Of a DNA stretch of 35,771 bases, positions 1 to 35,771 are shown piece after piece (the first letter of the stretch is position 1; each line of letters starts with the position of its first letter). Location of the stretch: the IMG/VR virus record IMGVR_UViG_2897328257_000002; one strand, 5' to 3'. Origin of the DNA: a virus. Lineage: Duplodnaviria; Heunggongvirae; Uroviricota; Caudoviricetes. The notes below the pieces were generated by a model, which saw only the letters and a list, made by a program, of their open reading frames with translations, searched no databases and was not told the DNA's origin. A program made the position numbers and the translations under genes.

Positions 1-1044
1 TTAGCTGTTTGCTTCAAGGCTCGTTGCTTTAGTGGAAAGTGTGGCTAATGGATTGAAACGCAGTGCTGTTTCAAGGTGATCAGGGGCAAGATGTGCATAG
101 CGCATAGTCATTTTTATATCGTGGTGGCCCAGGATTTTTTGCAAAGCAAGAATGTTCCCGCCGGACATCATAAAATGTGCTGCGAACGTATGGCGTAGAA
201 CGTGGGTAAGTTGCCCGCGTGGTAGTACGATCGAGGTTCTATCCATCACGGCTAAAAACTGGAAGTAGCAGTCAGTAAATAATTTGAAGCCGTCTAGGGC
301 AACAATTTCCTCATACAGCTCTTTGCTGATCGGAATGCTGCGGTTTTTTTTGCCCTTAGTTCTGACAAATGTGATTCGGTATTTCGTGACCTGAGAACGT
401 GTCAGGTTCACAGCTTCGCGCCAACGTGCTCCGGTGCTCAAGCAGATTTTGACGACAAGAGCGAGCAGGGGGCTTTGGCGTTGACAGTCGAACAGAAGCT
501 CTGTGATTTGTTCATGTGTCAGCCAGGCCATTTCTTTTTCGGCAATGGTGAATTTACGCATGTTCTCCAGTGGATTTGGTGCTGTCCATTCACCGAGGCG
601 GGCTAACTCGCTAAAGACCCCACTCAGATAGCTTTGCTCCAGATTGATAGTTACCGGGCTGGCTCCTTTCTTCCATTTTTCGCTGAAGTAGATTTCACCC
701 GTCAGGCGCTTATCGCGATAGTGCGCGAACATTTTGGATGTTAGATCGGTGGCGAGGGGATTTCCGAGAGCATCGACCATCAGTATCAACTTGTCGTAAA
801 CATGCTCGCCAGCGGTCAGGGATTTGCCGTGCAGTTTGAACCAGAGTTCAACGATATCCTGTAGAGTTCGACGGTCTACCGATTCACCAAGCCAAGGCTT
901 AGCTTCTGCCTCCTCCATCGTGTGACGCTCAAAAGCTAATGCTTCGCCTTTGGTAGCGAACTGTTTACGCACGCGACGCCCGCTGCGTCCGGCGGGGTAA
1001 CATTCGCAAAGCCATTTCCCTGTGGTTAGTTTTCGTACTGCCAT
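1..1044 (-). CDS. int: Tyrosine integrase (P2/186-type phage integrase)
   Basis: Minus-strand ORF ending at TAA (1..3). First ATG is at 1042..1044 (product MAVRKLTTGKW...), so the 6-frame ORF 1..1200 is a 5' over-extension. C-terminal region LRHTFAAHFMMSGGNILALQKILGHHDIKMTMRYAHL fits the tyrosine recombinase catalytic core. Position at the prophage end next to the repressor gene. Confidence 0.9.
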   Translation of the reverse strand: MAVRKLTTGKWLCECYPAGRSGRRVRKQFATKGEALAFERHTMEEAEAKPWLGESVDRRTLQDIVELWFKLHGKSLTAGEHVYDKLILMVDALGNPLATDLTSKMFAHYRDKRLTGEIYFSEKWKKGASPVTINLEQSYLSGVFSELARLGEWTAPNPLENMRKFTIAEKEMAWLTHEQITELLFDCQRQSPLLALVVKICLSTGARWREAVNLTRSQVTKYRITFVRTKGKKNRSIPISKELYEEIVALDGFKLFTDCYFQFLAVMDRTSIVLPRGQLTHVLRHTFAAHFMMSGGNILALQKILGHHDIKMTMRYAHLAPDHLETALRFNPLATLSTKATSLEANS

Positions 1045-1232
1045 AAAAAATGCCCTCCAGTAGAGAGCATTTTCACTGTATGTATAACCAGTGTCAATGT
1101 ATGAAATCCTACGACCATACATCTCACTGAAGCCATAATTAAGTTGGCTATTCTTTTTGCTATGTGAGCATGTAATTTTTGCGGTTAACCTGCGGCTCAT
1201 TTTTATTTTAGGCGCAGATATAAAAGCAAAAG

Positions 1233-1424
1233 TTATCGTGAGTTTTTAGTACAGATTTTTTTGGATTTACTAATAGTTCCATCATTGCAAACAAATTTGC
1301 CATCTGAGGTACAGTGAGAAACACCTCCCTTTTTCCCTGAACAGGGATAATTTCTAGCATAGGTAGTTAGTGGGTTTAATAACAAAGAACATGACAAAAC
1401 CACAAAAAATACCTTACCAAGCAT
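1233..1424 (-). CDS. Small secreted cysteine-rich protein (signal peptide plus ~40 aa Lys/Cys-rich mature peptide), unknown function
   Basis: ATG at 1422..1424 preceded by GGAGG (1431..1435) with 6 nt spacing. N-terminus [23 protein letters not shown] looks like a Sec signal peptide; the mature part has 4 Cys and many Lys. Lies 17 bp downstream of the cI stop on the same strand; locally AT-rich. Confidence 0.5.
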
Positions 1425-1440
1425 AGTTTTCCTCCCGGTA

Positions 1441-2010
1441 CTATTTAACATACTTGACTGTTAAACTTATAATTTTACCAATTATTTCAATGTCTTCTAT
1501 CTTGCATTCGAAGGCTCTGTTTCCACCCTCGACGAAGATTCTTCCACCGGGTAAACGAGTAATGTCACGGATCGTTATTTCGCCATCAATACTTATTACC
1601 CATTTACCATCACGTATATCATCAAATTCCTTATCACAAATAAATTCAGAATTATTATCTGTGATTGCAAAAAGATTCTTGAATGCCGACGGTAGAAATT
1701 CCCTATCGAAAATATAAAAACCGTCTTCACACAAGGCCCCATCAGATAATACATATTTAGCAACTTCCATAGTATTTGTATTTGCTGATGCTTGCTTTGA
1801 ACCATGCCCTGTTGTTAGCCAATTAAGCGAGGTGCCCGTTTCAAGGGCGCACTGGATTACCCAATCTGCTGGAAAAATATCACGCATATAGCGCGTTGCC
1901 ATGGTGCTCTTAGAAACACCTAAATGATCACAGAGAGCCTGACGGGTACCGAACCCATATGCTTCAACTAAACGTTCTATGGCTTTCTTACCGCCGCTAT
2001 TGAAATCCAC
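1441..2010 (-). CDS. cI: CI-type immunity repressor (186-like, HTH N-terminal domain plus C-terminal domain)
   Basis: ORF 1441..2097 has no in-frame ATG near its 5' end. HTH-like segment [23 protein letters not shown]. Probable GTG start at 2008..2010 behind GGAGGA (2013..2018); the start could lie as far upstream as 2097. TAG stop at 1441..1443. Divergent from the apl-like gene. Confidence 0.7.
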
Positions 2011-2155
2011 AAGTCCTCCAAAGAAATCCAAAATTCGTTGACAGATTCCAAAAGCGATCTTAAAGTTGAACCAGAAGTGTTCTTTTGGAGCCTTCACTAC
2101 TAATCACGACAAACAACGGCTCGCCACAAGCCATATCTAGAAGGAATGTTGCCTT
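2011..2155. promoter_or_regulatory. Lysis/lysogeny switch region between divergent cI and apl genes (promoters and operators expected, not resolved)
   Basis: Intergenic segment between the oppositely oriented repressor and Apl/Cox-like genes. Individual promoter or operator sites were not mapped. Confidence 0.4.
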
Positions 2156-2359
2156 ATGACACCTAACATTTCAATTACTCTGAATACACCACATGTCACA
2201 ATCGAACGTTATAGCGAACTGACTGGCCTTTCTATTGATACGATTAACGACATGTTGGCTGATGGCCGACTACCTCGTCATCGTCTTCGTAAAGACAAAA
2301 AACGTGAAAAGGTAATGATTAACCTGGCTGCTCTGACTGTTGATGCTTTGTCTGCTTAA
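2156..2359 (+). CDS. apl: Apl/Cox-like small HTH regulator (excisionase / lytic-switch protein)
   Basis: ATG at 2156; 67 aa with HTH-like segment [24 protein letters not shown]. First gene of the rightward early operon, divergent from cI. Confidence 0.7.
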
Positions 2360-2423
2360 TAGACGTCTATTTTCGCAATAAGACGCTGAGTTCGATTTTG
2401 CGATAAGTTCGGAGTTGAAAACC

Positions 2424-2933
2424 ATGTTTGATTACCAAGTTTCCAAACATCCACATTTTGATGAAGCCTGTCGTGCATTCGCACTGCGCCACAATCTGGT
2501 GCAACTGGCAGAACGTGCAGGCATGAATGTGCAGATTCTGCGGAACAAACTGAACCCAGCTCAACCTCATTTATTAACCGCACCAGAAATTTGGTTGCTT
2601 ACCGATCTGACTGAAGATTCAACGCTGGTAGATGGTTTTCTGGCACAGATTCACTGCCTGCCATGTGTACCGATTAATGAGGTAGCAAAAGAGAAACTGC
2701 CGCATTACGTCATGAGTGCAACTGCAGAGATAGGACGTGTCGCGGCAGGTGCGGTTTCTGGCGATGTAAAAACCAGTGCAGGCCGTCGTGATGCGATCAG
2801 CAGCATTAACTCTGTTACACGACTGATGGCGCTGGCTGCTGTTTCATTGCAGGCCCGTTTACAGGCTAATCCTGCGATGGCGAGTGCAGTTGATACCATG
2901 ACTGGTCTTGGTGCTTCATTCGGTTTGCTGTGA
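2424..2933 (+). CDS. cII: CII-like early regulatory protein (phage 186 CII family)
   Basis: ATG at 2424 with GGAG 9 nt upstream; 169 aa beginning [24 protein letters not shown], recalled as 186 CII-like. Position immediately after apl. Confidence 0.75.
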
Positions 2934-2940
2934 GGTGCTT

Positions 2941-3237
2941 ATGCTTACGAAAGAACCATCATTTGCATCGCTGCTGGTAAAACAAAGTCCGGCAATGCAC
3001 TACGGTCACGGCTGGATCACGGGTGAGGATGGAAAACGCTGGCATCCATGTCATTCACAAGATGAATTGCTGTCTGAATTGACCACGAGGAAACGGAGAA
3101 AGTCCAAATGTATGCGGCAGAAAGTGAAGTGGTTTATCAGTTTCGTTACAGAGGGGAGAGTTATTCAGTACCTGAAGATGATTTGCTCTGTTGCTATCCG
3201 TCATTGTCGGGCGATGGCAGTTACTTTTTCACGTTAA
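2941..3237 (+). CDS. Hypothetical early protein
   Basis: ATG at 2941 just after the cII stop (GAGGTG upstream); 98 aa. The 3' third overlaps the next ORF in another frame and looks non-protein-like, so the true stop is uncertain. Confidence 0.45.
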   Translation: MLTKEPSFASLLVKQSPAMHYGHGWITGEDGKRWHPCHSQDELLSELTTRKRRKSKCMRQKVKWFISFVTEGRVIQYLKMICSVAIRHCRAMAVTFSR

Positions 3238-3332
3238 AGGATGGGACGTTTTTACGGGGAGAGCAGGTTAAAGAGACGATACGAAAAAATGTATCTCCTC
3301 TTGAGCGTTACCGTAAGAACAAAGAACGATAG
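3108..3332 (+). CDS. Hypothetical early protein
   Basis: ATG at 3108 with GGAG 9 nt upstream; 74 aa (MYAAESEVVYQFRYRGESYSVPEDD...). Overlaps the previous ORF by about 130 nt in a different frame. Confidence 0.5.
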   Translation: MYAAESEVVYQFRYRGESYSVPEDDLLCCYPSLSGDGSYFFTLKDGTFLRGEQVKETIRKNVSPLERYRKNKER

Positions 3333-9316: not shown

Positions 9317-10966
9317 ATGTTAGTCAAGAAAAATAAAAATTATAGTTTATATTTTTTAATTACAAATAATCAACAGATATCTGATTCTGGTAATTATATA
9401 AAAATAGTCCCATCAAGAAGCGATTGGAATGATTTTGGATATTTGAGTAGAGTCGAAATATCTATTTTTAATAAAAAAGAGTGTAAGGATATAATTTCAC
9501 TGAATGGTTATATTGGTTTTTTGAATTCAGAGGAGGAACGAAATGGAAAAGCAGAACTGATAAGGCGAGTGAAGAAAAAGGAAGAATCTAATTTAAAGGA
9601 TGAGGGGTTTAATGATTATTTTGTCATGCTTCAGGATATGAATAATTATCGAAGACTAGTAAGATTTTTTGGGGTGAATGAATCCAAATATATATTAAAT
9701 TTCATTAATGATGTTGTTTCTAAGAAAAGTGACGCTAGTGCAGAGAATTTGAGGAAAAAAGCAATCTCTTCTGATATCTTTAATAAATCTTTCATTAGAG
9801 AGTCTGAGTCGTATTTTACTTTCAAAAATGCAGGAACAGTTCTTTCCGGTATTCAATATGAGGAGTTGGGTAATTTATCACAGCACATCAAGATTAGCTA
9901 TTCGAATAAAGTTAATGAAGAAGATGTATCTTATGTTTTTAATTTTGATCACGAGCATGATTTACCAAAAAGAATTTCCATAATTATAGGCGAGAATGGT
10001 GTAGGAAAAAGCCAAACGCTTAGAGAAATCGCATTGGCTGCGATTAAAGGAAAGGATAATTTGGTGGCTGTAGTTGATTCTAACGGTGTAAGCATTGAAG
10101 AACGAATTCAAATTAGTAGGCTCATTGCTTTTTCTCCAACAAATGAAAGTAAGTGTTCATTTCCAACCGATAAAAGAATAAAATCATTGATATGGTACAA
10201 AAGATTGACTTTAAATCGTGAATCAAAATCCAAATTAAACTTGAATGATTTAATAGTGCAACTAGCGAGGAGTAACGACGCTATCGGCTATAATCAAAGG
10301 TGGAATATATTTGTTGATGCACTGAGTGTTCTAAATAGTAACAACGATTTAGTAATCAAATGTAGCGGTGAAAATTCACCATTTGTTAAATTAAATGAGC
10401 TTAATTCTCGAGGCGAAGAATCCAGACTATCATTATATTCTGAAATTATTCTCTCTGGCGAGCCTTTGAGGCTTGTTGAAAATAAATGTTACCCTTTGAG
10501 TAGTGGGGAAATATCGTTTATTAAGTTTTGTGTACAAGTCTGTTTGTATATTGAGAATGGGACTCTTCTATTAATAGATGAGCCAGAAACACATCTCCAT
10601 CCTTCATTTATTAATAAATTTATGGCATTGCTTGATAATTTATTAGAAAAGACAGGCTCTTCAGCTATCATAGCAACGCATTCGGTTTATCTTGTTCGGG
10701 AGGTTTTTAAGGAGCAAGTGACAATACTCAGAAGACGAGATGATGGGGTAATTGTTAGCGAAAAACCGAGATTGAGTACTTTTGGGGCGAATATAGGAAA
10801 TATCTCATATTTTGTTTTCGGTGAGAGTGAACCAACTCAAATTTTAAATAAAGTAAAAAATAATATAATTGCAAAGAATATGTCTTGGGATGATGTTGAA
10901 TCTAAATATAGCGAGGACTTATCACTTAATGTATTAACTGCGTTGAGAAATGAAATAGGCAATTGA
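9317..10966 (+). CDS. ABC-type (AAA_15/AAA_21-like) ATPase with ~220-aa N-terminal extension; PtuA-like candidate defence ATPase
   Basis: 549 aa. Walker A GENGVGKS (~residue 225), signature-like LSSGE, Walker B/D-loop LLLIDEPETHLHP, H-loop IIATHS. N-terminal ~220 aa has no recognisable motif. Very AT-rich; stop is 1 nt before the next start. Confidence 0.75.
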   Translation: MLVKKNKNYSLYFLITNNQQISDSGNYIKIVPSRSDWNDFGYLSRVEISIFNKKECKDIISLNGYIGFLNSEEERNGKAELIRRVKKKEESNLKDEGFNDYFVMLQDMNNYRRLVRFFGVNESKYILNFINDVVSKKSDASAENLRKKAISSDIFNKSFIRESESYFTFKNAGTVLSGIQYEELGNLSQHIKISYSNKVNEEDVSYVFNFDHEHDLPKRISIIIGENGVGKSQTLREIALAAIKGKDNLVAVVDSNGVSIEERIQISRLIAFSPTNESKCSFPTDKRIKSLIWYKRLTLNRESKSKLNLNDLIVQLARSNDAIGYNQRWNIFVDALSVLNSNNDLVIKCSGENSPFVKLNELNSRGEESRLSLYSEIILSGEPLRLVENKCYPLSSGEISFIKFCVQVCLYIENGTLLLIDEPETHLHPSFINKFMALLDNLLEKTGSSAIIATHSVYLVREVFKEQVTILRRRDDGVIVSEKPRLSTFGANIGNISYFVFGESEPTQILNKVKNNIIAKNMSWDDVESKYSEDLSLNVLTALRNEIGN

Positions 10967-10967
10967 A

Positions 10968-11831
10968 ATGAATAAATTAAAAAGACCTGTTTTTAAAGAT
11001 TATTCTGCATTTAAAAAACTATCTGCAAATAAGAGATTAAAACATCATTCTGTTCTGAATGGACAGGATACATTTATACTTAATGCATATAGATCGTACA
11101 TAAAGAATAAAGGATATCTTAATGTCAATTCTTGTGGCGTATTGAGTAACAATATTGCTGAAGCTTTGAAATATTATTATAACAATCCCGCAAAGTGTTT
11201 ATCTATAATTGATGATATAAGAGCAGCTAATTCTAATTCTCTATGTCCAATGTGTGGTTCAATGCATAGCGGGACTTTGGATCATGTTTTACCCAAGGAA
11301 AACTATCCAGAATTTTCTTTATTCACTAAGAATTTGGTTCCTGCTTGCAAATGTAATACTTTCAAAAGTACTACTATAGCTAATTCTGCAGGCCATCGGA
11401 TGCTGCATCCATATTTTGATAATATATTAAAAAAAAGATTAATATGTGCTAATTTTTCTAAATTAGGGCGAACACCTACAATTGATGTAAAAATCATAAT
11501 TGACCCAATGTCACCAGAATATAACAATGTTAAGTATCATCTTGATAATGTTGTTATCAAGAATAATATTAAGGGGTATTTGTCTGAACAATGGGAGTCG
11601 TTTTACTTATATCCTGAGCTTGTTATTAGAGGACTGAATAAGAGTCTTTCTACTTATAGCGATGTATATGAGTTGTTGACTCGCGAGTTGTTGCTGTTGG
11701 ATGAAAAACATAAAGGTAAAAATAATTGGAATTCGGTTTTTGTAGCTGGGTTAATTCGACCTGATGTGATTAGGTGGATACTCTGTGAATTACATTTAGG
11801 TAACAGAAGTCCAGACGGTCGTCTCATATGA
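10968..11831 (+). CDS. HNH endonuclease-domain protein; PtuB-like candidate defence nuclease
   Basis: 287 aa with CPMCGSMHSGTLDHVLPKENYP...NLVPACKCN...H...LHPYF, an HNH core with cysteine zinc-binding pairs. Translationally coupled to the upstream ATPase. Confidence 0.7.
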   Translation: MNKLKRPVFKDYSAFKKLSANKRLKHHSVLNGQDTFILNAYRSYIKNKGYLNVNSCGVLSNNIAEALKYYYNNPAKCLSIIDDIRAANSNSLCPMCGSMHSGTLDHVLPKENYPEFSLFTKNLVPACKCNTFKSTTIANSAGHRMLHPYFDNILKKRLICANFSKLGRTPTIDVKIIIDPMSPEYNNVKYHLDNVVIKNNIKGYLSEQWESFYLYPELVIRGLNKSLSTYSDVYELLTRELLLLDEKHKGKNNWNSVFVAGLIRPDVIRWILCELHLGNRSPDGRLI

Positions 11832-20697: not shown

Positions 20698-21228
20698 TTA
20701 CGCACTTAATAAACTTAAATAACTTTTTATGCTTTGGCAAAAAGGGAAAAGGTCTATTTTAATTTTCCAGTTTTTTTTGTTTTGAACCCCAGAAGCAATA
20801 ATAGAACCATCCCAATATTTTATTCCATTTTTGCCGGTCTTTTTTGTTAACTCAAAACTTAATGCGTGAATAATTTTATTGCAGCATTCGCGTATAGAAC
20901 CTTTAACATGACCATCTATAACAAAAAGTATATTTTCATGTTCTTCAAATGCTTCTTTCTCAGGTGAGTAATCTGGGTTCCACTCATGTTCACTAGTGTC
21001 TTGGAGAATTCGTAGTTTTGTACAAAGGCTAATAAGATTGTTGCTAATGGTATATTCCAACCATCCGTTGTACGATAACTCCTCCATTTCAAATTCAGTT
21101 ACTATAGAATCATCATATACTTTCTGTGTGGAATATATACGCTGTAAATAAAATTCAGATGAACAGCATAATTGCTCAATTATTCTTGCGTGTTCTTCTA
21201 TAGCGTAATAATCAATTGGATGGCTCAT
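20698..21228 (-). CDS. Hypothetical protein (176 aa) in AT-rich moron between S and V (P2 orf30 position)
   Basis: ATG at 21226..21228 (product MSHPIDYYAIEEHARIIEQL...); opposite strand to the flanking late genes; no recognised motif. Confidence 0.6.
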   Translation of the reverse strand: MSHPIDYYAIEEHARIIEQLCCSSEFYLQRIYSTQKVYDDSIVTEFEMEELSYNGWLEYTISNNLISLCTKLRILQDTSEHEWNPDYSPEKEAFEEHENILFVIDGHVKGSIRECCNKIIHALSFELTKKTGKNGIKYWDGSIIASGVQNKKNWKIKIDLFPFCQSIKSYLSLLSA

Positions 21229-21259
21229 TCTTTTACCTTTCTTCGATTGGAATTGTATT

Positions 21260-21277
21260 TGTGTCATTTACCACACA
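21260..21277. promoter_or_regulatory. Late-promoter activator dyad TGT-N12-ACA (TGTGTCATTTACCACACA) upstream of V
   Basis: Exact dyad in the 95-bp intergenic region between the moron start and the V start. Confidence 0.5.
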
Positions 21278-24815: not shown

Positions 24816-24980
24816 ACGAATAAACTCACCACGTAAATCAGGCAATTTATTTGTCGGATAAGCCTTTGCCAGTTCCGGGTATTCTTCAGCAGAAAAAGCT
24901 GCACCGTTGCATTTCAGCCAGCCTGTCGGCGGAGTGGCTGAAGGCCATGGAACAGGTACACCAACAGGTAATGCCGAACC
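24816..24980 (-). CDS. 5' fragment of an alternative tail-fibre variable (C-terminal) segment in inverted orientation; remainder lost in the gap
   Basis: Minus-strand translation ...SALPVGVPVPWPSATPPTGWLKCNGAAFSAEEYPELAKAYPTNKLPDLRGEFIR carries the PWPS...YP.LA.AYP...PD.RG motif recalled from variable tail-fibre ends of the Mu S / P1 S / P2 H type. Lies just inside the candidate inversion site next to the invertase gene. Confidence 0.5.
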
Positions 24981-25006
24981 TTCTCCCAAACCAACGTTTA
25001 AGAAAA
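24981..25006. promoter_or_regulatory. Candidate Hin/Gin-type inversion crossover site (TTCTCCCAAACCAACGTTTAAGAAAA)
   Basis: 26-bp imperfect palindrome with AAACC-AA-(G)GTTT core resembling recalled hix/gix sites; located between the variable fibre fragment and the invertase gene. Confidence 0.45.
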
Positions 25007-33039: not shown

Positions 33040-33151
33040 CTCCACAAAATGGGGACATCAAAGAAAAGCAGTGGCACTAATTAAGACTGATGCCCTGCGG
33101 AAAAGTTCTGCGGTTGTGCAAAAAAATTTCATTTTCAGGGCAACTTCAGTT

Positions 33152-34837
33152 TTATCCTAATCCTGGCCATACCATGACGATGATTGTCCCTGCCAGCGTC
33201 AGCAGGACGTTGGCGATTGCGTAGGTGCCCGCATAGCCCAGCGCAGGGATGTTACTGCGAGCTGTATCACTGATGATCTCCATTGCCGGCGCGCAGGTGC
33301 GTGCGCCCATCATTGCGCCGAACAACAGTGCGCGGTTCATTCGCAATACATAAGCACCGAACAAGAAACAGATAACCACGGGCACAAGACTGACAATTAA
33401 TCCGGCAATCAACATCTGACCGCCAATCGCGCCCAGGCCGTTATTAATACCGCTACCGGCGCTCAGACCAACGCCTGCCATAAACACCATCAAGCCGAAC
33501 TCTTTCACCATGCTTAATGCACCTTGCGGAATGTAACCGAAGGTCGGGTGGTTAGCACGCATAAAGCCCAGCATAATTCCGGCGAATAACAACCCGGCAG
33601 CGTTCCCCATGCCGAAACTGAATGTGCTGAACTGGAAGGTGATCATCCCGATCATCAGCCCAATAACAAAGAAGGCGCAAAATGCCAGCAGGTCAGTGAC
33701 CTGGCTGTGAATCGAGATAAAGCCGATGCGATCGGCGATGGTTTTTACGCGACGGGCATCACCGCTGACTTGTAAAACGTCACCTTTGTTAAGCACGACG
33801 TTGTCATCTATCGGCATCTCAATCTGGCTACGAATGACGCGGTTAAGGAAGCAACCGTGATCGGTCAACTTCAGTTGTGCGAGACGTTTACCTACAGCGT
33901 TATGGTTTTTAACGACCACTTCTTCAGTGACGATACGCATGTCGAGAAGGTCACGATCGAAAACTTCTTTACCGTTACGGAAGCTGGGATCGAGTCGGGC
34001 ATGGGCGTCGGGATAGCCTACCAACGCTATTTCATCGCCCATTTGTAGCACGGCATCACCGTCTGGATTTGCCAGAATCCCGTTACGTCGAATACGTTCA
34101 ATGTAGCAGCCGGTTTGTCGATAAATACCCAGTTCACGCAGATTTTTGCCGTCGGTCCAGGCCACCAGCTCCGGGCCGACGCGATAGGCGCGGATCACCG
34201 GTAAATAAACCTTACGGTTGGCATCAGTGTCCAGGCCACGTTCGCGGGCGATTTGCTGGGCGCTGGTCTGTAAGTCCTGATGCTGCAATTTCGGCAAGTA
34301 ACGCGCACCAACAATCAAACTCACCAGACCGATTAAATAGGTTAAGGCATACCCGAGGCTCAGATTATCCAGTGCCAGTGAGAGCTGCCTGCTTTCCATG
34401 CCGGAATGACGCAGTGTATCGCCAGCACCGACCAGAACCGGTGTCGACGTCATAGAGCCTGCTAACATACCGGCCGTCAGGCCAATATCCCAGCCAAACA
34501 GCTTACCTAACCCTAAGGCGATCACCAGCGCACTGCCAACCATCACCAGTGCTAACATTAGGTAATTTTTCCCATCGCGAAAAAAAATGGAAAAAAAGTT
34601 CGGTCCGGCTTCGACCCCGACGCAGAAAATAAACAGCATAAAGCCAAGATTAAGCGCATCGGTGTTAATGCTGAAATGTTGTTGGCCTAATAACAGCGAT
34701 ACGACTAAAACGCCAATGGAATTACCCAGTTGGATCGAACCAAGTCGTAACTTTCCGAGACATAGCCCAAGCGCGAGGACCACAAATAATAACAGAATGT
34801 AATTCCCATTTAACAATTCGGCGACGTTTATATTCAC
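33152..34837 (-). CDS. ybjL: Host putative transporter YbjL (AAE-family membrane protein with two TrkA-C domains)
   Basis: 561 aa, [51 protein letters not shown]..., recognised as E. coli YbjL; normal host GC content. Confidence 0.9.
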
Positions 34838-35106
34838 GGAGGCTAACTTCTTGTTTACTAGTAAGCTGTTGAAAGAAATGGTAATTTACGATAATGTTTT
34901 TTACCAGAATTCAGGGCGCAGATTCATTCAGCGCACCTAAACGATAGTAAAGTAACAATATATTTTACTAGTGTAATCACATTAGGTATCAACGGCTATA
35001 TGAATTGCGTTGGCCTATATTAGCATGGAATGCGAAGCGGCTTTATCTTACTGAACGCCACACTGGCGAAAAATGTGTTCGATAGACGCAGTGTCAGGAG
35101 GAACGA

Positions 35107-35484
35107 GTGAAACATAAACAACGTTGGGCGGGGGCAATCTGCTGTTTTGTCCTCTTCATTGTGGTGTGCCTTTTTCTGGCGACGCACATGAAAGGCGCTT
35201 TTCGGGCTGCCGGGCATCCTGAAATCGGCTTGCTATTTTTCATTCTTCCTGGAGCAGTGGCCAGCTTCTTTTCACAGCGTAGAGAAGTCCTGAAACCTCT
35301 GTTTGGCGCAATGCTGGCGGCACCCTGTTCGATGCTCATTATGCGGCTGTTTTTTTCACCGACGCGCTCATTCTGGCAAGAGCTGGCATGGTTACTAAGC
35401 GCGGTGTTCTGGTGTGCGCTGGGGGCACTGTGTTTCTTATTTATCAGTAGTTTGTTTAAACCACAGCACAGAAAAAATCAGTAA
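35107..35484 (+). CDS. ybjM: Host inner-membrane protein YbjM
   Basis: 125 aa hydrophobic protein MKHKQRWAGAICCFVLFIVVCLFLATHMKG...; position between ybjL and grxA as in E. coli. Confidence 0.85.
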   Translation: MKHKQRWAGAICCFVLFIVVCLFLATHMKGAFRAAGHPEIGLLFFILPGAVASFFSQRREVLKPLFGAMLAAPCSMLIMRLFFSPTRSFWQELAWLLSAVFWCALGALCFLFISSLFKPQHRKNQ

Positions 35485-35513
35485 AGCCCTCAACGCGAGG
35501 GCTTGTCAGACGA

Positions 35514-35771
35514 TCAGGCGTCCAGATTTTCTTTCACCCATGCAGCAAAATCGGTATAGCCGCCGATATGTTGCTGATCGACAAAAATCTGCGGCACGGT
35601 TTCTACGGGTTTACCTGCCTTTTGTTGTAGATCTTCTTTAGTGATCCCTTCCGCACGAATATCTACATACTGATACTGAAAATCATCGCGTTCATTGCTC
35701 AATTTCTCAGCCAGATCTTTTGCACGCACACAGTAAGGGCAACCCGAACGACCAAAAATAACGGTTTGCAT
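35514..35771 (-). CDS. grxA: Glutaredoxin 1
   Basis: 85 aa, MQTVIFGRSGCPYCVRAKDLAEKL... with CPYC active site; the gene starts exactly at the window end (ATG at 35769..35771, minus). Confidence 0.9.
   Translation of the reverse strand: MQTVIFGRSGCPYCVRAKDLAEKLSNERDDFQYQYVDIRAEGITKEDLQQKAGKPVETVPQIFVDQQHIGGYTDFAAWVKENLDA

Follow-up and report, generated by a model that had tools for sequence, protein, structure and literature searches.

A YdcA-family gene in the cI-int cargo slot of a 186-like Escherichia coli prophage encodes a predicted periplasmic mini-protein and candidate exclusion factor

What does a temperate phage carry between its repressor and its integrase, and to what end? We addressed this question for a stretch of 35,771 nucleotides (IMG/VR record IMGVR_UViG_2897328257_000002, Caudoviricetes; hereafter the window), in which a small gene on the minus strand separates cI from int. 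A first-pass annotation, made from the letters alone, had described the product as a small cysteine- and lysine-rich peptide that could act as a secreted or periplasmic lysogenic-conversion factor. A homologue search places the gene in a named family, YdcA, with an existing RefSeq annotation and a paralogue in the core genome of E. coli. We consider it nearly certain that the gene is a YdcA-family periplasmic moron (accessory gene). Much more tentatively, and with a likelihood that we would put clearly below even, we propose that it is a lysogen-expressed periplasmic module that interferes with the entry of foreign DNA. "Lysogenic-conversion factor" is a reasonable label for such a gene, if a putative one. 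Databases already list the gene and its family, and morons are well known from lysogenic operons.

The gene occupies positions 1233..1424 of the minus strand and comprises 63 codons and a stop in the list of open reading frames (ORFs). A Shine-Dalgarno sequence, GGAGG, can be read at 1431..1435 on the same strand, 6 nt upstream of the ATG at 1422-1424, in keeping with the strong ribosome-binding site reported by the first-pass annotation. That annotation also had the orientation right, as the gene and cI both lie on the minus strand; the distance between them, given as 17 bp, is 16 nt when measured from the cI stop codon (TAG, 1441-1443). When the gene is compared with a copy sharing 93.8% nucleotide identity, 11 synonymous changes and 1 non-synonymous change are observed (ratio of non-synonymous to synonymous substitution rates, dN/dS, of 0.02), and these selection data exclude a chance ORF. 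Absence or disruption of the ORF in close relatives had been named as a point that would speak against a function. The gene is indeed absent from many sibling prophages, where other cargo is found instead, but where present it is under strong purifying selection.

Two other readings of the region were set aside. Translation from an ATG at 1451 would give a protein of 72 aa and place a lipobox-like V-L-S-C at position 21; this start lacks a Shine-Dalgarno sequence, overlaps cI and adds an extension that is not conserved in homologues. Coding on the plus strand or a role as RNA was also rejected: only ORFs of 30-50 aa overlap the region, and a scan of both strands against Rfam returned zero family matches.

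Family membership was established with several profiles. The NCBIfam model NF007463 (PRK10040.1-2) is covered over its whole length by residues 5-63 of the protein with 115.8 bits (cut-off 93), and phrog_6000 (PHROG 6000) is matched with an E-value (E) of 1.9e-34. The identical protein is found in RefSeq as WP_000900883.1, named "YdcA family protein" by the NCBI Prokaryotic Genome Annotation Pipeline (PGAP) and encoded in a prophage adjoining rcdA, and close homologues carry the precomputed Pfam assignment PF27300, named YdcA. Our local Pfam-A had no model for the protein (its best match, GULLO2-like at E 0.075, is noise), and the NCBIfam lpg1681 family gave a non-significant match (E 0.11). 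The family is defined by the motif P-C-S-G-x-K-G-G-[IV]-x-H-C ... F-[VI]-C-N-D-G-x-x-S-x-S-K-[KR]-x-C, whose columns are 90-100% conserved over 149 family representatives and of which every position is present in the window protein. It comprises 468 clusters at 50% identity, mostly from Proteobacteria.

The window protein is distinct from the core E. coli member of this family. It scores 68.5 bits against the core-gene model NF007462, below the cut-off of 118. The core paralogue, ydcA, is present in 5412 of 5426 complete E. coli genomes and shares ~75% DNA identity with the window gene over the mature part. It is reported to be controlled by YdcI and induced by acid, and its deletion to sensitise E. 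coli W to 300 mM 3-hydroxypropionate (PMC7642389). The prophage copy is found in fewer genomes, the arrangement int-ydcA-cI being present in 593 of the 5426. The best 80 matches in IMG/VR are near-identical E. coli loci only. Elsewhere, homologues are carried by plasmids of Acinetobacter and Rhizobium, and those on the chromosomes of Moraxella and of an unidentified metagenomic lineage stand among housekeeping genes, a context that is uninformative. One of the plasmids (NZ_CP139254.1, a 3916-bp MOBQ plasmid of Acinetobacter pittii) has a YdcA-like gene at 728-904 as one of five genes, directly after a traD-like gene and in the company of mobA. The UniRef cluster that holds the E. coli proteins is named "Conjugal transfer protein", and this plasmid placement may explain the name. 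A "ydcA" reported in the gonococcal genetic island of Neisseria appears to be a positional gene name and was set aside. Our literature searches found no mention of WP_000900883, WP_001321204, PF27300 or PRK10040, and found the term "YdcA family protein" only in comparative-genomics papers on Pseudomonas.

The protein has the layout that the first-pass annotation had described, namely a signal peptide followed by a lysine-rich mature peptide of about 40 aa with four cysteines. The signal peptide was judged by rule-based inspection (hydrophobicity profile and -3/-1 rule). Residues 1-23 (1356..1424, minus strand) are predicted to form a Sec signal peptide cleaved after Ala23, with Lys4, a 12-residue hydrophobic core (mean Kyte-Doolittle value 2.2-2.7) and a c-region NPLTTYA that puts T at -3 and A at -1; the AlphaFold2 (AF2) model has a helix at residues 3-15. 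Across 29 aligned homologues, the N-terminal part is free to vary, the Ala at -1 never changes and the mature domain hardly does so, which is the typical pattern of a cleaved signal peptide; the cleavage context is conserved as A|[KR]N-x-P-C. The lipobox that marks exclusion lipoproteins of the Llp, Cor and Ltp type was absent from both the signal region and the homologue alignment; the sole Cys of the signal region, Cys12 (V-L-S-C), is too near the N-terminus and is not found in homologues. The mature domain (1236..1355, minus strand) has 40 aa and includes 4 conserved Cys, and 7 Lys and 2 Arg against 2 Asp, giving an isoelectric point of 9.7 and a net charge of about +6.8. Besides the family alignments, it is supported by an AF2 model with a beta-hairpin (predicted local distance difference test, pLDDT, 80) and by its similarity to the lobes of the Legionella protein Dis2, discussed below. 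Once in the periplasm, the four cysteines are expected to pair in two disulfides.

The element that carries the gene is a 186-like prophage of the P2 family, integrated next to rcdA. Its immunity region encodes a repressor with the domains Phage_CI_repr and Phage_CI_C, a CII/CP76 protein, Fil and a Cox/Apl-like protein. Since this region is of the 186 type, 186 and not P2 is the right comparison; the statement of the first-pass annotation that P2 has no gene between C and int is nonetheless correct, P2 int following C after 69 nt. The CI repressor gene (1441..2010, minus strand; Phage_CI_repr E 3e-31, Phage_CI_C E 2e-26; also called by PGAP) is the first gene of the lysogenic operon, and the tyrosine integrase gene of the P2/186 family (1..1044, minus strand; Pfam Int_N and Phage_integrase; PGAP) lies on the far side of the YdcA gene. 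A small ORF between int and rcdA falls outside the window, because the window starts exactly at the int stop codon.

The YdcA gene travels as part of a compact cassette. Siblings integrated at the same attachment site share int and ~85 nt upstream of it with the window and then diverge. Partial BLAST matches to siblings with other cargo end at window positions 1103-1122, and homology resumes at ~1125. Together with the alignment, these partial matches delimit a cargo cassette of ~315 bp (1126..1440, minus strand), made of a 16-nt leader, the gene and a ~107-nt trailer. Two E. coli variants share 94% identity over the gene and its trailing spacer, as against 88% over cI and 79% over int, which fits a cassette that moves independently of its flanks.

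Lysogenic expression, which the first-pass annotation had thought probable, is very likely. A consensus scan of the coding strand between cI and the YdcA gene found no terminator-like site, and because of this and of the 16-nt gap, cI transcripts should include the YdcA gene. Directly before the int ATG stands a terminator-like hairpin, GCUCUC-UACUG-GAGGGC followed by U6 (1045..1068, minus strand), identified by RNA folding and sibling conservation. The 196-nt RNA between the YdcA gene and int is strongly structured (z = -4.6 by RNA folding), the right arm of the hairpin is the Shine-Dalgarno sequence of int, and the hairpin is kept in siblings, including those that carry PD-Lambda-1, with a compensatory change (GCCCUC/GAGGGC). 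As a terminator, this hairpin escaped the consensus scan. A sigma-70-like consensus match, TTGACA-17-GAAAAT (1069..1097, minus strand; 10/12 positions), lies within the part shared by siblings, and a promoter at 1097-1069 would initiate transcription within the hairpin. From this layout, transcripts of the lysogen would seem to terminate, or to keep int silent, immediately beyond the slot, the hairpin being a putative terminator or translational gate that would insulate int from the cI-cargo transcript. In E. coli B95.deltaA (B/BL21 lineage; 1298-3277), the P2/186-like prophage has decayed, with cII and the replication gene A as pseudogenes, yet cI, the YdcA-family gene and int are intact. Given this intact cI-ydcA-int remnant, strains of the BL21 type offer a convenient system for expression work.

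In E. coli 186-like prophages, the cI-int junction serves as a cargo slot in which YdcA, PD-Lambda-1 and other genes replace one another. In siblings at the same bacterial attachment site (attB), the slot holds a gene for a 558-aa protein that matches PD-Lambda-1 (PADLOC E 3e-120). In CFT073 it encodes a 323-aa protein with a weak, below-cutoff match to DUF2207_C, and in the Klebsiella phage 4LV2017 it holds an ORF of 349 aa. A slot at this position extends to more distant phages. The Vibrio phage K139 has the order cI-orf2-glo-int, and its Glo is a periplasmic protein annotated as involved in phage exclusion (PMC4870250); Rousset et al. reported a cI-int defence hotspot in K139-like phages (PMC9122126). 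In the Haemophilus phages HP2 and S2, we found an unannotated 60-codon YdcA homologue in the same slot, with an ATG that overlaps the cI stop codon (TAATG). Between this gene and int, HP2 carries orf1, which encodes 254 aa with a hydrophobic N-terminus that by eye resembles a signal peptide and with a tRNA_anti-like oligonucleotide/oligosaccharide-binding (OB) fold domain. When one locus per species was considered (78 loci), the upstream neighbour of the YdcA gene was Phage_CI_repr in 5 and the downstream neighbour a phage integrase in 6.

A first lead on function comes from larger proteins that contain the same domain. The YdcA domain is N-terminal to Endonuclease_NS in 3 of the 149 family representatives, and PF27300 occurs together with PF01223 (Endonuclease_NS) in 13 of the 120 best matches according to precomputed Pfam assignments. 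Its other fusion partners are SNase, a single-HKD PLD/Nuc-like domain (PLDc_2) and a region with a weak HNH match; we found no enzyme class other than nucleases fused to it. In these larger proteins the YdcA domain always comes after the signal peptide. One of the fusions is located in a phage-like contig, and in two loci an SNase gene is the immediate neighbour. Tandem repeats of the domain occur as well, and C-terminal tails are basic in 79% of cases. Fusion to three unrelated nuclease folds argues that the shared property is tied to a common substrate or location and not to one catalytic fold. The recurrence of such fusions fits a nucleic-acid-binding accessory domain of secreted nucleases, the binding being putative.

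A second lead comes from Dis2 (Lpg0823; chain AN of 7MUC/7MUD), a subunit of the Legionella type IV secretion system Dot/Icm that is pinned by disulfides, is found close to the outer membrane, makes contact with DotK, DotC and DotD, and can be dispensed with (PMC8486379, PMC12716638). The papers describing it reported no homologues outside the Legionellales and no structural relatives (PMC8486379, PMC12716638). With phmmer, the mature peptide matches both lobes of Dis2 (E 2.2e-4), and alignment of the YdcA profile to Dis2 with hhalign gives 95.7% over 25 columns. When the AF2 model was searched against the PDB with Foldseek, Dis2 was the top match (probability 0.80-0.87, template modelling score 0.58-0.63, 38% identity, E 0.15-0.2). 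The resemblance is thus seen in sequence, profile and predicted fold. The alignments are short, and homology between YdcA and Dis2 is likely; the orphan Dis2 may belong to a widespread proteobacterial family.

Taken together, the evidence points to a periplasmic binding module linked to nucleases and envelope machines over a toxin or virulence factor. In the model that we propose, a Sec-exported precursor would be cleaved to a mini-protein of ~40 residues with a net charge of ~+7, and its gene would be transcribed with cI in every lysogen, upstream of the conserved hairpin and U-tract that precede int. The YdcA domain would form a small binding module at the outer-membrane-proximal side of the periplasm, and its target would be DNA or another polyanion, or else an envelope machine that passes DNA. 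The stand-alone prophage copy would then hinder the entry of superinfecting phage, and possibly that of conjugative or transforming DNA, with a function analogous to that of Glo, the occupant of the same slot in K139. The identity of the gene, its conservation, the architecture of the slot, the domain fusions and the structural resemblance are what the analysis shows; export and cleavage, the disulfides, lysogen expression, the binding target and the exclusion phenotype are what we infer. A more general form of this proposal, which we find doubtful, is that the YdcA domain is an unrecognised periplasmic module recognising DNA or the DNA-entry machinery close to the outer membrane, that stand-alone prophage and plasmid copies make up a new class of very small periplasmic factors, which would exclude superinfecting phage or block other horizontally transferred DNA on its way in, and that the same fold explains Dis2.

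Several observations weigh against interference with DNA entry. Injected phage DNA normally crosses the periplasm within a protein conduit, and simple DNA binding may for this reason fail to reach it. We know of no phage-exclusion experiment on a YdcA-family protein, and the window protein matched 0 families of PADLOC-DB 2.0 at E <= 0.01. Export, cleavage of the signal peptide and the disulfides are predicted features. On its chromosome, nearly every E. coli carries a paralogue in housekeeping surroundings, with the same situation in other species, and such a ubiquitous paralogue argues for a general envelope role over dedicated defence; the sole phenotypes reported for core ydcA are its acid-linked regulation by YdcI and the 3-hydroxypropionate sensitivity of the deletion (PMC7642389). 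In siphophages of Moraxella and Acinetobacter, the YdcA gene sits in the tail-gene region and not in the lysogeny module. The match to Dis2, finally, is short and of modest significance, the family profile scoring Dis2 at E 0.055, weaker than the single sequence does, and the partners of the dispensable Dis2 are proteins (DotK, DotC and DotD), not DNA.

These points bring other explanations into play. The gene could be an envelope-physiology moron that performs the role of core ydcA, some part in periplasmic or envelope homeostasis under acid or organic-acid stress, its dose being raised or its regulation changed in lysogens, with no role against foreign DNA. The near-universal core paralogue with its ~75% DNA identity over the mature part, the housekeeping surroundings of chromosomal copies in other genera, and the reported YdcI control, acid induction and 3-hydroxypropionate sensitivity of the deletion (PMC7642389) are what such a role would lead one to expect. 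It leaves unexplained why the domain is fused exclusively to nucleases, why phages and plasmids of many genera have captured it repeatedly and why it resides in a slot otherwise holding defence or exclusion genes, and NCBI treats the phage and core proteins as separate equivalogs (NF007463 and NF007462). We judge this explanation somewhat unlikely, while giving it more weight than those that follow. Fusions to nucleases, nuclease genes as neighbours, the strongly basic domain and the basic tails would also suit a protein that handles DNA without exclusion. Such a protein would bind DNA in the periplasm, in vesicles or in the matrix of biofilms, or be a cofactor or antagonist of nucleases, and would confer a conversion trait related to biofilms or nutrient DNA. 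Periplasmic or secreted DNases with activity on incoming DNA are a known cargo of mobile elements (PMC12378983). E. coli strains of the K-12 type, however, have no obvious release route for a periplasmic peptide, no nuclease gene adjoins the YdcA gene in the window, and DNA binding is itself putative, which makes this an improbable account of the prophage copy.

The similarity to Dis2 in sequence, profile and fold opens another route, in which the protein would act as a docking subunit. Like one lobe of Dis2, it would bind lipoproteins of envelope machines (secretins, type IV secretion systems, or proteins of the Lpp, Pal or OmpA type) and modulate the machine; it could, for instance, mask a phage receptor complex without any contact with DNA. 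The position of Dis2 near the outer membrane and its contacts with DotK, DotC and DotD (PMC12716638) suit this role, as do the UniRef name "Conjugal transfer protein" and the homologue beside traD and mobA on the 3.9-kb Acinetobacter plasmid. The window, however, encodes no type IV secretion system (none of its genes is listed in the prophage annotation), Dis2 itself requires two lobes and five disulfides while the Legionella system can do without it, and the nuclease fusions would go unexplained unless the domain merely tethers enzymes near the outer membrane; here too we see an improbable explanation. A secreted cationic antimicrobial peptide or protease inhibitor directed at competitors or host proteases would be expected to be small, cationic and rich in cysteine and to have a signal peptide, as this product does. 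The matches to LDL-receptor class A modules (E 0.01-0.03) and Pin-II proteinase inhibitors (E 0.07-0.7) fall below significance and are typical of cysteine-rich motifs, and we treated both as coincidences of cysteine pattern. Genes for immunity or export are lacking in the vicinity, essentially every E. coli has a paralogue, and the domain is a module of larger periplasmic enzymes, all of which makes an antimicrobial or inhibitor very improbable.

Interference with the entry of foreign DNA is thus the reading that we prefer, and it matters how it turns out. If it is true, the protein would be among the smallest exclusion factors known, at ~40 residues. The gene is carried by roughly one in nine sequenced E. 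coli, and prophages and plasmids of Haemophilus, Moraxella, Acinetobacter, Yersinia and others have homologues. Should it prove to be no more than an extra copy of a housekeeping protein of the envelope, the finding would be ordinary. In either case, the nuclease association and the Dis2-like fold provide a functional lead for the YdcA family, including the core E. coli gene, and an unannotated gene has been identified in the reference genome of phage HP2. We found no earlier report that E. coli 186-like prophages have, alongside PD-Lambda-1, a YdcA-family gene in the cI-int slot, and none on the association of YdcA domains with nucleases, the link to Dis2 or the HP2 gene.

The window contains other features that are separate from the cI-int slot. 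In the gpA-portal hotspot, a gene pair on the plus strand (9317-10966 and 10968-11831) gives matches to PDC-M01, a candidate defence system (A: AAA_21 ATPase, E 2e-55; B: E 1e-33), and the same position in the closest E. coli genome is occupied by a gene with a TIR domain instead. An ORF of 189 aa with no match in Pfam or PADLOC (20698-21267, minus strand) runs against the tail and baseplate genes around it; in the closest genome a DUF2971 gene takes its place, which indicates another variable cargo slot. A 182-bp segment (24816-24997) has an inverted match to the closest genome (88% identity), where it lies near tail-fibre and tail-fibre-assembly genes and ~2 kb from a gene annotated as "recombinase family protein", a picture that would fit an invertible tail-fibre segment. 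The right end of the prophage follows an ogr-like gene at ~32.7-32.9 kb, and ~33150-35771 is host DNA (ybjL, ybjM, grxA), as judged by collinearity with NZ_CM129040.1.

How, then, does the gene compare with known systems? Phage 186 has the same types of CI, CII, Apl/Cox and Fil genes in the same order as the window prophage; it differs in that its cI and int overlap by one base with no cargo between them, its annotated pL/pE operon being cI-int-orf69. E. coli K-12 YdcA (b1419) has the same domain, size and layout, with a signal peptide directly before a basic four-Cys domain, whereas the window copy is borne by a prophage, lies in a lysogenic operon and belongs to a separate NCBI equivalog. 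Dis2 shares with YdcA, in each of its two lobes, the motif C-x-K-x-G-G-[IV]-x-[HY]-C...G-[KR]-[FL]-V-C-N-[DN]-G-x-x-S, and both are exported, in the case of the window protein by prediction; Dis2 is a ~14-kDa part of a secretion machine with two similar lobes and five disulfides, whereas the window protein has a single lobe with four cysteines and is encoded by a prophage. PD-Lambda-1 (DUF4041 and T5orf172) is found in precisely this cI-int slot in sibling prophages that share the attachment site beside rcdA. It is an unrelated cytoplasmic defence protein, and indicates the type of cargo that the slot receives, not the function of YdcA. Glo of the Vibrio cholerae phage K139 has no detectable sequence homology to YdcA (hhalign probability 3%, with only the signal peptides aligning) and, at 137 aa, is not rich in cysteine. 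It resembles the window protein in its small size and, for the latter by prediction, its periplasmic location, and its gene, too, lies between cI and int within a lysogenic operon of a P2-related phage; the analogy between the two would be one of position and function and not of family membership.

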